The notes beneath the pieces are model-generated. The model worked only from the letters and a program-made list of their open reading frames with translations, searched no databases and had not been told where the DNA came from. From the sequence record NC_019503.1: a DNA stretch of 64,000 bases; one strand, given 5' to 3'. Source of the stretch: Escherichia phage ime09. Made by a program: the position numbers and the translations under genes. Each line of letters begins with the position of its first letter. Within the stretch, counting starts at the first letter, position 1. This document shows positions 7,784-39,240 of the stretch, piece by piece.

Positions 7784-7835
7784 ATAATACCACAGTTTGA
7801 ACTTCTTGTAAACAACTTTGTGAAAATTATTTTAG
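7784..7835 (-). promoter_or_regulatory. T4-type early promoter (minus strand): -35 GTTTACA, -10 TATTAT, AT-rich UP element
   Basis: Plus strand shows tgtaaac (7808-7814) and ataata (7784-7789) plus the recurring gtgaaaattatttt cassette. Confidence 0.55.
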
Positions 7836-7884
7836 GGAATGATAAGAAGGGAACGATAGCTTAGAATGGTAATATACAGAATGT

Positions 7885-7898
7885 GAGAAAGAAAGGCC
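7885..7898 (-). terminator. Rho-independent terminator-like hairpin after nrdH
   Basis: GGCCCagagGGGCC stem-loop followed by U-rich run on minus-strand transcript. Confidence 0.5.
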
Positions 7899-7911
7899 CA
7901 GAGGGCCCGTC

Positions 7912-8220
7912 TTAATCTTCTATGATATCTCTATCATATCCAAGTGAAATGAGAGTTTCTTTGAAGTGTTTAATGTTCTTTTGTCTAGAATCATTGATGA
8001 AAATGACTGGATAACGAATGTTAAGAGATGTGAATCCAGCGCGTTTAGCAAGAGATACAATCAGTGGACGATCATACTCAATCTTACCATTATTTGTAAG
8101 AACTTTATAGAAAGTAAAAGGAGCATTGAGCTCCTTTAGAAGTTTTGTAACTGATTGACATCCAGGACAACGACCTACTTCATCTGGAATTCCATAGATT
8201 TCAATCTTGTTTTGTTTCAC
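7912..8220 (-). CDS. nrdH: Glutaredoxin-like redoxin
   Basis: 102 aa, CPGC redox motif near N-terminus, located just downstream of nrdG as in T4. Confidence 0.75.
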   Translation of the reverse strand: MKQNKIEIYGIPDEVGRCPGCQSVTKLLKELNAPFTFYKVLTNNGKIEYDRPLIVSLAKRAGFTSLNIRYPVIFINDSRQKNIKHFKETLISLGYDRDIIED

Positions 8221-8222
8221 AA

Positions 8223-8459
8223 CTATTCCTTACTAAGAGCAGCATTCAGCTTGTTAGTAATTTTATCCAGACGCTCATTGAATTCGCTAGAAGATAGTCC
8301 TTTTTCTGGAGAAATCAAACTAATTACGAAAAATATAGCAATAAAAGGAATAAGGAAAATAGCTCCAACTGCCATAAACAGAAAGAATGTTACAGTTGTA
8401 AGAAAATCAGCTAAACCTTTGCGAAATTTATACATATTTACCCTTAATTGATTAACCAA
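8223..8459 (-). CDS. Small membrane protein
   Basis: 78 aa with a long hydrophobic helix (FFLFMAVGAIFLIPFIAIFFVISLI). Confidence 0.5.
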   Translation of the reverse strand: MVNQLRVNMYKFRKGLADFLTTVTFFLFMAVGAIFLIPFIAIFFVISLISPEKGLSSSEFNERLDKITNKLNAALSKE

Positions 8460-8549
8460 GCATTGATAAGCACTAAACTATATTGCGAATAAAATTCTGG
8501 ACCAAAATGAAAAATCATATCATTTATAGTGTCCATAATATAATTCAAT

Positions 8550-9020
8550 TTAATCATGTTTCCACACCCCATCGGTATTTGACCAAAGTCGCTGATTATC
8601 TGATCCTCGCCACAGCTTTTTGGTCGGAAGATTTTTCTCATACTTCCCATCAATAATAACATCAACATATTTAAGCATTTCTAGTTGTTTAATATCTTCA
8701 AACTTATATCCTGTCCACAACCAAATGCTTTTATTGGGATAAAGATTTTTTACTGTTTGAACAATGCAATGAACAACATCTCTATTATCAGGATAAAGAG
8801 GGTCTCCTCCGGTTATAGTTAATCCTTCTATATAATCATTATTCAAACATTCAATTAATTGTTCTAGTGTTTCACCAGTGAATGGAACGCCATTTCTAGC
8901 GTTCCATGTTGATTTATTATAACACCCTTCGCATTTATGCAAACAGCCTGTGACGAAAAGAACGACCCTGCATCCAGGGCCATTCACAAAATCGCAAGGA
9001 TAAAATCTATCATAATTCAT
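8550..9020 (-). CDS. nrdG: Anaerobic ribonucleotide reductase activating protein (radical SAM)
   Basis: 156 aa, CxxxCxxC cluster (CLHKCEGC), start overlaps nrdD stop. Confidence 0.9.
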   Translation of the reverse strand: MNYDRFYPCDFVNGPGCRVVLFVTGCLHKCEGCYNKSTWNARNGVPFTGETLEQLIECLNNDYIEGLTITGGDPLYPDNRDVVHCIVQTVKNLYPNKSIWLWTGYKFEDIKQLEMLKYVDVIIDGKYEKNLPTKKLWRGSDNQRLWSNTDGVWKHD

Positions 9021-37875: not shown

Positions 37876-37972
37876 ATTATTAACAAAGGCTCTTAAGCAA
37901 GAACCCTTGATGATAGAGGGTATTAATCAGTGCGATATGAGTTAATAATAACAAATAATTCTTAAAGCATAT

Positions 37973-38266
37973 TTACCATTTATGATAATACATATTTACG
38001 ATGCATTCAAGACCCAAAGGATTCTTGAAAATATCATATTCAAGAGGACCTTTTTCTGTTTCAATAAAGAAATCAAAATTTACTGTATTAAATTTACGGT
38101 CTTCCTTCACTAATTTAACTTGTGAAGATGAACGGTCAATGTAAACCTTTTCAACTTCAAAATATGTTAAAATGCCATAATCATCAATCAAGGCTTTAGC
38201 CGCGTCTTGATCATATTTATATCCATTTTCAATGGATGATACTTTCGCATAAAGAATCATTATCAA
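37973..38266 (-). CDS. Hypothetical protein
   Basis: ORF track 97 aa. Confidence 0.5.
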   Translation of the reverse strand: MIMILYAKVSSIENGYKYDQDAAKALIDDYGILTYFEVEKVYIDRSSSQVKLVKEDRKFNTVNFDFFIETEKGPLEYDIFKNPLGLECIVNMYYHKW

Positions 38267-38685
38267 CCTTCATCAACAATAGTGTGCGTATTGGCATTTA
38301 CAATTTGCCACCAATCAAAGCGATTAGAACCATAATCTGGTTTGTTTTCATTTTCTTTGATAATGTCACGGAGTTCATCTTCGGTAGCGGCTTTCGCTAT
38401 TAAATCAGCATATCCACCACGAGGATAATAATTATCACCTGCAAAAAGTAAAAAGTTTGGTTTAATGTTATTGAACTCTTCAAGAGTAATAACTTTTCCT
38501 GATGGTAGTTGAACAATCTCTACATATTTATATCCTAATTTTTGAGCAGCATCTACTGCTTCAAGCAAAGTATCATGAGCCCATCCAATTTGACAACCTG
38601 GCTTTTCCGATGGATTAGCCTGATAATCCGCATACACTTTGTACATTCTATTCACCTTTAGAAATTTTATCCATAACGATAGCAA
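38263..38685 (-). CDS. Hypothetical protein (start possibly internal MYKVYADYQ)
   Basis: ORF track 140 aa. Confidence 0.5.
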   Translation of the reverse strand: MLSLWIKFLKVNRMYKVYADYQANPSEKPGCQIGWAHDTLLEAVDAAQKLGYKYVEIVQLPSGKVITLEEFNNIKPNFLLFAGDNYYPRGGYADLIAKAATEDELRDIIKENENKPDYGSNRFDWWQIVNANTHTIVDEG

Positions 38686-38833
38686 TTAAACCAATTAAAA
38701 ATGCTACTACAAGTGAAAACACATTTTCTGCTGTAGTCAATAATCCGCATATAAATCCAACAAACATTGAAAAACTAAAAGCAGAAGCAGAAATTGCAAT
38801 AGCAACATTTCGAATTAATTCACAGCGTTTCAT
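38648..38833 (-). CDS. Small membrane protein
   Basis: 61 aa, two hydrophobic helices. Confidence 0.4.
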   Translation of the reverse strand: MKRCELIRNVAIAISASAFSFSMFVGFICGLLTTAENVFSLVVAFLIGLIAIVMDKISKGE

Positions 38834-38857
38834 TTTATTCTCCTCAGTAGTTGATAG

Positions 38858-38910
38858 GGTAATAGTATCACAACTAAAACCCTATGTAAACAACTTTGTG
38901 AAATTATTTT
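38858..38910 (-). promoter_or_regulatory. T4-type early promoter (minus strand)
   Basis: plus-strand aatagtatc (38861-38869), tgtaaac (38885-38891), UP cassette identical to the one at 39215-39240. Confidence 0.55.
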
Positions 38911-39161
38911 AAATCTTCTAATCGTTTCTTCATCTTAGAACCATTTTTAGCAATTTCTCCTGCATCGGAGCATAACGCTAAAAGTGCTTTAACTTTAGTT
39001 TGGTCTCCTTTAAAAGACGAAGGATCGACTGCAGCAGCAAGTTCTTTAATACGAGAGAAAAGACGCTCAGCTTCAGCTAAAGCCATTCCAAGCTTTACTT
39101 CCATACCGTGAGAAGATTCAGTGATAGTAGTTTTTGTAGCAAACTCTTTGAAAGTTTTCAT
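38904..39161 (-). CDS. Internal-protein-like small protein (ipI-position), paralog of 30418..30699
   Basis: 85 aa beginning MKTFKEFATK (CTS-like); located just downstream of 57B as ipI is in T4. Confidence 0.65.
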   Translation of the reverse strand: MKTFKEFATKTTITESSHGMEVKLGMALAEAERLFSRIKELAAAVDPSSFKGDQTKVKALLALCSDAGEIAKNGSKMKKRLEDLK

Positions 39162-39187
39162 TTTATTTTCCTAATTAATTTTGATGA

Positions 39188-39240
39188 GATAATAGTATCA
39201 CTACCTCATCAGCATGTAAACAACTTTGTGAAATTATTTT
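39188..39240 (-). promoter_or_regulatory. T4-type early promoter (minus strand) upstream of ipI-like gene
   Basis: plus-strand aatagtatc (39191-39199), tgtaaac (39215-39221), gtgaaattatttt UP element. Confidence 0.55.

Follow-up and report, generated by a model that had tools for sequence, protein, structure and literature searches.

Recurrent T4-type early-promoter cassettes on the minus strand of the Escherichia phage ime09 genome

Results

A T4-like genome segment with compact promoter cassettes

The window analysed here, a 64,000-nucleotide (nt) stretch of the genome of Escherichia phage ime09 (NC_019503.1), carries on its minus strand a recurrent compact element in which the sequence hallmarks of a T4 early promoter precede the ribosome-binding site and start codon of a gene. 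The window is a segment of a T4-like phage (Tequatrovirus) genome: megablast of positions 28000–40000 returned about 1200 phage records, headed by Tequatrovirus genomes at 96–97% identity. Gene order is collinear with T4 at about 33–97 kb, and blastn against positions 38000–76000 of the T4 reference record AF158101 gave a collinear alignment from a-gt.2/gene 55 through genes 57A, 1 and 3, in homologous blocks of 75–98% identity that are broken by replacements. The T4 early/middle region lies on the minus strand, up to about 42 kb, where the GC skew switches sign.

Fifteen sites in the window match the pattern GTTTAC-N18-TAnnnT, and 13 of them are complete cassettes with a fixed order of parts: an upstream stop, an A/T-rich stretch, a −35 element GTTTAC(A/T), an 18-nt gap, TGn, a −10 element TA(C/T)(T/A)AT, a leader, a Shine–Dalgarno sequence (SD) and an ATG. 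Two of the cassettes are orthologs of PE1 and PE2, the putative early promoters annotated on either side of ipI in the 1980s T4 GenBank record X03016. All matches are listed below, the last two with their scores in a position weight matrix (PWM) trained on the 13 clean copies. Hairpins come from folding each cassette as RNA from the −35 to the ATG.

39159–39246, minus strand: cassette 1, T4 PE2 ortholog; −35 GTTTAC 39216–39221, −10 TACTAT 39192–39197, ATG 39161 of a gene for an 85-residue internal head protein (Ip5-like); hairpin 39182–39211 straddles the −10 (−14.8 kcal/mol, z −3.3)
38831–38916, minus strand: cassette 2, T4 PE1 ortholog; −35 38886–38891, −10 38862–38867, ATG 38833 of trna.4; SD GGAGAATAAAA at 38833–38843 is the exact RegB consensus; hairpin 38854–38885 straddles the −10
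34890–34993, minus strand: cassette 3; −35 34963–34968, −10 34939–34944, ATG 34892 of e.8 (87 residues)
34571–34653, minus strand: cassette 4; −35 34623–34628, −10 34599–34604, ATG 34573 of a 132-residue open reading frame (ORF) in place of T4 e.7; hairpin 34586–34630 straddles the −10 (−21.8 kcal/mol, z −5.2)
34098–34196, minus strand: cassette 5; −35 34166–34171, −10 TATAAT 34142–34147, ATG 34100 of e.6; no significant hairpin; T4 homology picks up again within the leader, at 34117
30357–30441, minus strand: cassette 6; −35 30411–30416, −10 30387–30392, ATG 30359 of denV (138 residues); hairpin 30363–30410, in which spacer CCTCCAAG pairs with SD-containing CTTGGAGG (−17.8 kcal/mol, z −3.9)
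27251–27335, minus strand: cassette 7; −35 27305–27310, −10 TATAAT 27281–27286, ATG 27253 of regB; hairpin 27258–27304, in which the spacer pairs with the SD (AAGAGGAGAA) (−23.1 kcal/mol, z −5.7)
23430–23523, minus strand: cassette 8; −35 23485–23490, −10 23461–23466, ATG 23432 of mobD.5 (62 residues); an intrinsic-terminator-like hairpin with a T-run, 23506–23523, directly abuts the −35
22618–22703, minus strand: cassette 9; −35 22673–22678, −10 TATAGT 22649–22654, ATG 22620 of mobD.2 (34 residues); hairpin 22636–22671 straddles the −10 and ends beside the SD (−21.6 kcal/mol, z −5.1)
19834–19952, minus strand: cassette 10; −35 19895–19900, −10 19871–19876, ATG 19836 of nrdC.10; SD GGAGAATAAAA at 19836–19846; terminator-like hairpin 19933–19952 with a T9 run 5' of the −35
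18401–18486, minus strand: cassette 11; −35 18456–18461, −10 18432–18437, ATG 18403 of nrdC.8; hairpin 18407–18451, in which spacer CTGTTCCTCTGTGG pairs with SD-containing CTACGGAGGAACAG (−23.8 kcal/mol, z −5.4)
15418–15503, minus strand: cassette 12; −35 15473–15478, −10 TATAAT 15449–15454, ATG 15420 of nrdC.4 (333 residues); hairpin 15423–15452 starts within the −10 and pairs with the SD
7751–7838, minus strand: cassette 13; −35 7808–7813, −10 TATTAT 7784–7789, ATG 7753 of a 55.6-like ORF; the cassette's upstream half (AAAATAATTTTCACAAAGTTGTTTACA) repeats, with one indel, the 32-mer shared by cassettes 1 and 2
7345–7374, minus strand: candidate promoter in a coding region (55.5-like), uncertain; PWM 18.6 bits, motif kept in T4, SD and ATG (7283) 61 nt 3' of the −10
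11841–11870, minus strand: pattern match in a coding region (49.1-like, 5' of pin); PWM below 8 bits, no TGn, GC-rich in place of the A/T-rich upstream stretch

The 18-nt gap after GTTTAC is constant in all 13 cassettes and equals a 17-bp spacer when counted from TTTACA; TGn, which makes an extended −10, is present in 11 of the 13. The 30 nt 5' of the −35 average 75% A+T, against about 65% for the window, with low information per position, and TTTCACAAA is common to the A/T-rich upstream stretch of five cassettes. From the −10 to the ATG the distance is 25–46 nt, with ATCAACTAC frequent in the leader region. Every cassette has a GAGGAG-type SD, 5–9 nt before the ATG.

Cassettes 1 and 2 are partly identical. 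A model that had seen only the letters and the translated ORFs (the sequence-only reading) had placed identical 30-mers at 38881–38910 and 39211–39240, but the last 3 bases there differ (AGG vs GCT). The true identical run is 32 nt long (GATTTAAAATAATTTCACAAAGTTGTTTACAT), at 38884–38915 and 39214–39245, and a second identical run of 12 nt spans the −10 (38860–38871 and 39190–39201).

GTTTACA alone occurs 24 times in the window against 11 expected. The 15 matches to GTTTAC-N18-TAnnnT, of which 14 fall within 7784–39240, all lie on the minus strand; shuffles give an expectation of 0.83 ± 0.95. The plus strand holds just two loosely spaced matches to the architecture. These counts bear out the earlier claim of at least ten early-promoter copies on the minus strand, and the ends of the range claimed for them are exact, 7784 belonging to the −10 of cassette 13 and 39240 to the upstream edge of cassette 1. 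A scan with an early-promoter matrix, proposed at the same time as a check, placed all 13 clean copies at 20 bits or more, a level that no site on the plus strand or in shuffles reached; this recovery is partly circular, because the PWM was trained on these same copies. Two lower-scoring sites were also recovered, the match at 7374 with 18.6 bits and, with 14.6 bits, a TTTTAC variant at 2387. The generic TTGACA/TATAAT consensus was not enriched over shuffles (77 vs 68.9 ± 8.9; 71 vs 62.1 ± 7.9), which ties the signal to the T4 early consensus in particular. In this A/T-rich genome a generic sigma-70 scan is uninformative, and the T4-specific pattern alone discriminates.

The cassettes match T4 early promoters

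The published T4 early consensus combines GTTTAC at −36 to −31 with an A-rich UP element at −40 to −44 and GT-rich sequence 5' of −12 (Nolan 2006, PMC1524935). The same architecture of UP, −35, TGn and −10 is described by Hinton 2010 (PMC2988021), and TTTACW-N17-TAYWAT has been given for the promoter-early stem-loop (PeSL) elements of T4 and PST (Comeau 2014, PMC4122927). Every published sequence feature is present in the cassettes, and the motif recurs at each of the orthologous sites in T4, where ipII and ipIII have further copies; both findings support the T4 early-promoter assignment made by the sequence-only reading. The likeness includes the 17-bp spacer and the position just 5' of early genes on the same strand; there is no substantive difference, the −10 here being often TACTAT rather than TATAAT but still within the published TAYWAT. 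We conclude that the cassettes are very probably immediate-early (Pe class) promoters, compact intergenic units that each drive one early gene.

T4 record AF158101 contains no promoter features, and X03016 was used instead. The latter, which we take to be the work of Broida & Abelson 1985 on the tRNA region, annotates a 'pot. stem-loop structure' over each of PE1 and PE2, the one over PE1 being labelled 'pot. IpI terminator'. The cassettes at 38891 and 39221 (cassettes 2 and 1, named here by the upstream end of the −35) are positional and sequence orthologs of PE1 and PE2, including the annotated overlapping stem-loops. They differ in that the enclosed gene is Ip5-like here and IpI in T4, and in that the shared repeat is longer here (32 nt), owing to GATTTAAAATAA, with which both 57B and the Ip5-like gene end. 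T4 early promoters are also said to be the subject of Liebig & Ruger 1989 and Wilkens & Ruger 1996. Our literature search found no genome-wide T4 transcription start site dataset.

By orthology with T4, where this step is established, unmodified host sigma-70 RNA polymerase would bind the UP element, the GTTTAC(A/T) −35 and the TGn-extended −10. TTTACA is one mismatch from TTGACA and sits at a 17-bp spacer, and firing would be immediate after DNA injection. A start about 7 nt past the −10 would then yield an unstructured leader of about 20–40 nt, with the SD 5–9 nt before the true ATG. By homology, the cassettes would be active promoters in ime09.

It is hardly conceivable that the matches are chance sigma-70-like hexamers of an A/T-rich genome, without common function. 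The unenriched generic scan and the two of 15 specific matches that lie within coding regions could be read that way, but the 15 matches greatly exceed the 0.83 expected and are all on the coding strand, 13 of them stand at a fixed distance 5' of an SD and ATG, and they are kept at T4 orthologous sites and in diverged T4-like phages. Strand bias, positional regularity and conservation refute a chance origin. It is also very unlikely that the cassettes are MotA/AsiA-dependent middle promoters, or late promoters, even though many T4 prereplicative genes have both early and middle promoters (PMC2988021) and both classes share −10 elements. The MotA box, taken as TGCTTnA at 11–13 bp from the −10 (full form (a/t)(a/t)(a/t)TGCTTtA, at 12 ± 1 bp), was absent from all 13 cassettes in a scan of the window, and the ten matches of this type lie at least 866 nt from any of them. 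Late TATAAATA motifs do not coincide with the cassettes either, none being found inside them in the window scan, and the GTTTAC −35 is the diagnostic element of the early class (PMC1524935).

Start codons of the early genes

The sequence-only reading had moved three starts downstream of the start of the longest ORF, to 30359 for denV, 23432 for mobD.5 (23244–23432) and 34892 for e.8 (34629–34892), and all three are right. The catalytic nucleophile of T4 endonuclease V is the N-terminal alpha-amino group of Thr2, so an N-terminal extension of DenV would be incompatible with function. Residue 1 of the denV product (MTRINL...) aligns with the start of crystallised T4 endonuclease V (2END, 138 residues); the extended ORF matches 2END only from its fifth residue, which places the start at ATG 30359. 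ATG 34892 gives the length of T4 e.8 (87 residues) and ATG 23432 that of mobD.5 (62 residues). A GGAG-type ribosome site lies 5–9 nt upstream of each corrected start. Since transcription would begin about 7 nt past the −10, longer ORFs that reach into the promoter are probably artefacts.

The accompanying claim, that the −10 lies inside the longest ORF, holds for mobD.5 (23244–23477, from TTG 23477, with the −10 at 23461–23466) and for e.8 (34629–34958, from ATG 34958 within the spacer, with the −10 at 34939–34944). It fails for denV, where the start-codon ORF runs from TTG 30371, 3' of the −10 (30387–30392), and the −10 falls within the stop-to-stop frame only. One case had been missed: the mechanical ORF of nrdC.4 begins at TTG 15471, the −10 lies at 15449–15454 and the real ATG is 15420. 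The mechanical starts of denV, mobD.2 and nrdC.10 fall between the −10 and the SD. The affected starts had been called annotated; the window came without annotation, so they are mechanical ORF calls, but the same error does occur in the public record of Shigella phage ESh26 (ON528736.1). Its e.8-like coding sequence (locus 6360–6677) begins at the ATG of ccATGgTACTAT, overlapping the −10, and is annotated with 105 residues instead of 87; the extra N-terminus (MVLYNYQLLIQKNNLENE) is translated promoter and leader.

Predicted hairpins straddle the promoter in most cassettes

Folding revealed a stable hairpin in 8 of the 13 cassettes (−14 to −24 kcal/mol, z −1.9 to −5.7); a ninth, in cassette 12 (15478), is borderline (z −1.8). 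When the same leaders are begun 7 nt past the −10, as own-promoter RNA would be, they fold at 0 to −1.5 kcal/mol. The 5' arm lies in the −35/−10 spacer (at 15478 it starts within the −10) and the 3' arm after the −10. With its 5' arm at or in the promoter, the hairpin cannot form in RNA from the cassette's own promoter; read-through RNA alone can form it. The 3' arm includes the SD in denV, regB, nrdC.8 and nrdC.4, and not in the other nine cassettes. Only two more cassettes have a terminator hairpin directly upstream (23506–23523 and 19933–19952), and two have neither kind.

The complementarity between spacer and leader is cassette-specific: cognate duplexes average −11.9 kcal/mol vs −7.2 kcal/mol for non-cognate ones, the observed value being reached in 0 of 20,000 permutations. 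We took orthologous upstream regions from T4-like contigs in IMG/VR. For denV, regB and nrdC.8 the hairpin is kept in other T4-like phages while the arm sequences differ, as in the denV arm pairs CTCCGTTTG/CAAACGGAG, CTCCTGTAG/CTACAGGAG, CTCCTGTG/CACAGGAG and CCTCCAAG/CTTGGAGG. The cognate permutation applied to 26 denV sequences again gave 0 of 20,000 at the observed value, and for 6 regB sequences p = 0.017. Most denV and regB orthologs also have the SD in the 3' arm. In a second class of hairpin among the orthologs, the SD and ATG pair with sequence that starts in the −10 itself. No structure came out of MAFFT followed by RNAalifold for the regions upstream of denV, since the register of the 3' arm changes from phage to phage.

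The hairpins contain 56 G-U pairs in the sense and 25 in the antisense orientation, and the sense folds are more stable (Wilcoxon p = 0.01); in the hairpin of cassette 9, two G-U pairs occupy positions that are Watson–Crick in T4. This asymmetry favours a role at the RNA level but, the sequences being related, is only suggestive.

Ribosome-site masking and RegB

In T4, the RegB endoribonuclease acts on exposed GGAG and so keeps expression to a brief early burst; the same would apply here. The consensus of RegB targets has been described (Uzan & Miller 2010, PMC3014915; Durand 2006, PMC1702504), and RNA structure shields GGAG from RegB (PMC3014915). The cassette SDs resemble these targets in that GGAG is followed by A-rich sequence, and the SD of regB itself lies in a cassette, as in T4. 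Exact GGAGAAUAAAA occurs at two sites only in the window, both of them cassette SDs (cassettes 2 and 10). Most cassette SDs depart from the full 11-nt consensus, and cleavage here is a prediction.

T4 is known to use hairpins that sequester a ribosome-binding site and contain an internal promoter, at e, soc, 49, I-TevI, segB and others (Edgell 2010, PMC2988022). As in the cassettes, these form only on transcripts from an upstream promoter and bury the SD, and RNA from the internal promoter lacks the 5' arm. In all published promoter-inside-hairpin cases, as is stated explicitly (PMC2988022), the promoters are late promoters of late genes. Here, by contrast, an early sigma-70 promoter stands inside the hairpin and not a gp55-dependent late one (TATAAATA), so the predicted effect is translation confined to the immediate-early burst rather than delayed.

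In the eight cassettes and the borderline ninth, the computed position of the 5' arm at the spacer or −10 implies that read-through RNA alone would form the hairpin; read-through transcripts would then be translationally masked and RegB-resistant at those sites. It is possible, although we hold this only tentatively, that in many T4-type early promoters the spacer is more than filler and doubles as the 5' arm (often an anti-SD CTCC...) of a hairpin over the cassette's own ribosome-binding site, such that own-promoter RNA alone would be translatable and RegB-cleavable and read-through RNA would be silent and protected. Such SD masking by the spacer of early promoters may go beyond the accessible literature, older subscription papers on T4 lying outside our search.

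PeSL elements and gene exchange

The cassettes match the published PeSL elements, for which mini-circles have been demonstrated in RB49 and phi1 (Arbiol 2010, PMC2839356); an earlier observation at the internal-protein (IP) locus is credited to Repoila 1994 in PMC4122927. Both have an early promoter, stem-loop, SD and ATG between small ORFs, with the stem-loop between −35 and −10 or over the −10 and the consensus TTTACW-N17-TAYWAT. Both are also tied to gene insertion, deletion or replacement, with crossovers between −10 and ATG. In the description of PST and T4, however, the stem-loops lie just 5' of the promoter, as terminators, whereas most hairpins here straddle the −10, lack a U-tract and in four cases pair with the SD.

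Four of the 24 breakpoints of homology between the window and T4 fall inside cassettes (0.91 expected, P = 0.012). The IP locus reads 57B-[P]-ip5-[P]-ip7-[P]-trna.4 in T2 ([P], promoter cassette); T4 has ipI between PE2 and PE1, the window has the Ip5-like gene only, and in ESh26 equivalent cassettes enclose a second internal-protein gene of another kind. The Ip5-like protein (38904–39161) is identical to T2 Ip5 at 84 of 85 residues, and its gene ends in GATTTAAAATAA, as does 57B. The window cassette between ip5 and trna.4 consists of the 5' half of the T2 ip5/ip7 cassette and the 3' half of the T2 ip7/trna.4 cassette, joined at the −10. This comparison with T2, T4 and ESh26 shows what appear to be gains and losses of internal-protein genes by crossover within cassettes. 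As the cassettes share up to 32 identical bases, they would act as crossover points for the gain, loss and replacement of small genes.

The interval between e and denV is a second cassette-bounded variable locus. In T4 (65355–66503) it reads e-[P]-ipIII-[P]-ipII-[P]-denV. ESh26 (contig L095 in our set) and contig L013 have e-[P]-denV, with an ipIII-type promoter half fused to the denV leader, and in the window (30359–30700) e overlaps an IP gene that is followed by [P]-denV. This IP gene (30418–30699) shares an ATGA overlap with the stop of the lysozyme gene e and lacks an early-promoter cassette of its own. It and the gene at 38904–39161, both on the minus strand, encode paralogous internal head proteins (both phrog_3499, 41 identical residues), one per T4 IP locus.

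About 60 nt 5' of denV, four IMG/VR contigs of 345–378 kb (L033, L035, L036 and L045, jumbo-phage relatives) carry a terminator-like hairpin, for example GGGTTGAC-TTCG-GTCAGCCC, followed by a T-run. Its stem contains a −35 TTGAC, and TATAAT follows at promoter spacing. This element is a composite terminator/promoter, like the G-run/C-run PeSL class of RB49 and phi1, in a very different phage group.

Alternative roles of the repeats

Two alternatives concern what the inverted repeats and shared sequences are for. The repeats around the −10 might be terminators or attenuators for the upstream gene and not translational masks, which we consider rather unlikely. The 'pot. IpI terminator' label in X03016, the termination of transcription by one PeSL stem-loop in a lacZ assay (PMC2839356) and the canonical terminators immediately 5' of cassettes 8 and 10 (23490 and 19900) favour it, but the straddling hairpins are followed by CAACTAC, AAAATTA or GAATAAC and not by a U-tract. 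Moreover, the SD forms the 3' arm in four cassettes of the window and in the majority of orthologs of denV and regB, with covarying arm extensions, a specificity that a terminator does not need. That the repeats are chiefly signals for recombination or mobility (PeSLs as 'mobile regulatory cassettes'), perhaps read by a dedicated protein, with promoter activity secondary, is unlikelier still. A 32-nt identical repeat does flank the internal-protein gene, cassettes are chimeric where genes were gained or lost between the window, T2, ESh26 and T4, breakpoints are enriched in cassettes, and mini-circles form in RB49 and phi1 (PMC2839356). Yet all conserved positions are known polymerase or ribosome contacts (UP, −35, TGn, −10, SD), which explains the conservation without a recombinase; the variable hairpin arms hold no common protein-readable sequence, short homology suffices for T4 recombination (PMC2839356), and the majority of breakpoints lie outside cassettes.

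Several observations weigh against reading the cassettes as early promoters with promoter-embedded hairpins and a part in gene exchange. Two pattern matches (7374 and 11870) sit in coding sequence and may not be promoters; the second is either a weak promoter or a chance match kept by coding constraint, and as a candidate pin promoter it was downgraded for its low PWM score, missing TGn and GC-rich upstream sequence. Four of the 13 cassettes (34171, 23490, 19900 and 7813) are without a significant promoter-straddling hairpin, so the feature is not universal. With a modest sense/antisense asymmetry, and with sequences related by descent, there is room for a DNA-level role of the inverted repeats, and hairpins that straddle the −10 lack a U-tract, so the published PeSL 'terminator' role is not obviously applicable. 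Twenty of the 24 breakpoints are outside cassettes, several of them reflecting the missing mobC, I-TevII, mobD and segB. The functional claims rest wholly on orthology with T4 and on folding predictions.

Other features of the window

The window lacks four homing-endonuclease genes of T4, namely mobC, I-TevII (with the nrdD intron), mobD and segB; the sites are at about 9000–9020, 10296–10299, 20968–21931 and 36677–37358. mobC and the nrdD intron are cleanly missing, and unrelated small ORFs (phrog_944, phrog_1502 and phrog_3355) replace mobD and segB.

Ten tRNA genes lie at 37044–37875 (minus strand; Arg, Asn, Tyr, Met, Thr, Ser, Pro, Gly, Leu, Gln), and a search of the window against Rfam gave these ten tRNAs only, with no family covering the cassettes. 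T4 has eight tRNAs. The window has Asn, Tyr and a tRNA with a CAU anticodon that was called Met; no tRNA was called as the tRNA-Ile annotated in T4, to which the CAU tRNA may correspond.

Two tandem paralogous ORFs of unknown function (35125–35688 and 35814–36287, minus strand, both phrog_2280) lie between e.8 and the small stable RNAs, in a stretch without T4 counterpart, and each is followed by a near-identical strong intrinsic terminator (35783–35806 and 36342–36365; a 40-nt repeat, 93% identical). The pair has the look of a duplicated module of gene plus terminator. A small ORF (12255–12464, minus strand) in the block that stands in place of T4 49.3 matches phrog_3402 (E = 1.6e-39), annotated as 'antitoxin from a toxin-antitoxin system'; a 49.2/49.3 exchange was noted in phage PST (Comeau 2014, PMC4122927).

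Implications

The recurrent feature is real, highly non-random and already known from T4 Pe promoters and PeSL cassettes; it is textbook and ordinary, and it adds nothing new about T4 transcription. In practice, start codons and operon boundaries can be called reliably from the cassettes in hundreds of automatically annotated T4-like genomes; among public records, at least that of ESh26 begins a gene within the promoter of that same gene. They are also a clean illustration of the cassette-mediated swapping of internal-protein (anti-defence) genes. A side question is raised as well, namely whether promoter-embedded hairpins confine immediate-early translation to own-promoter transcripts. If they do, each cassette would be a self-insulating unit of 'one promoter, one gene, one burst', and the PeSL stem-loops would be reinterpreted as translational insulators, not terminators.

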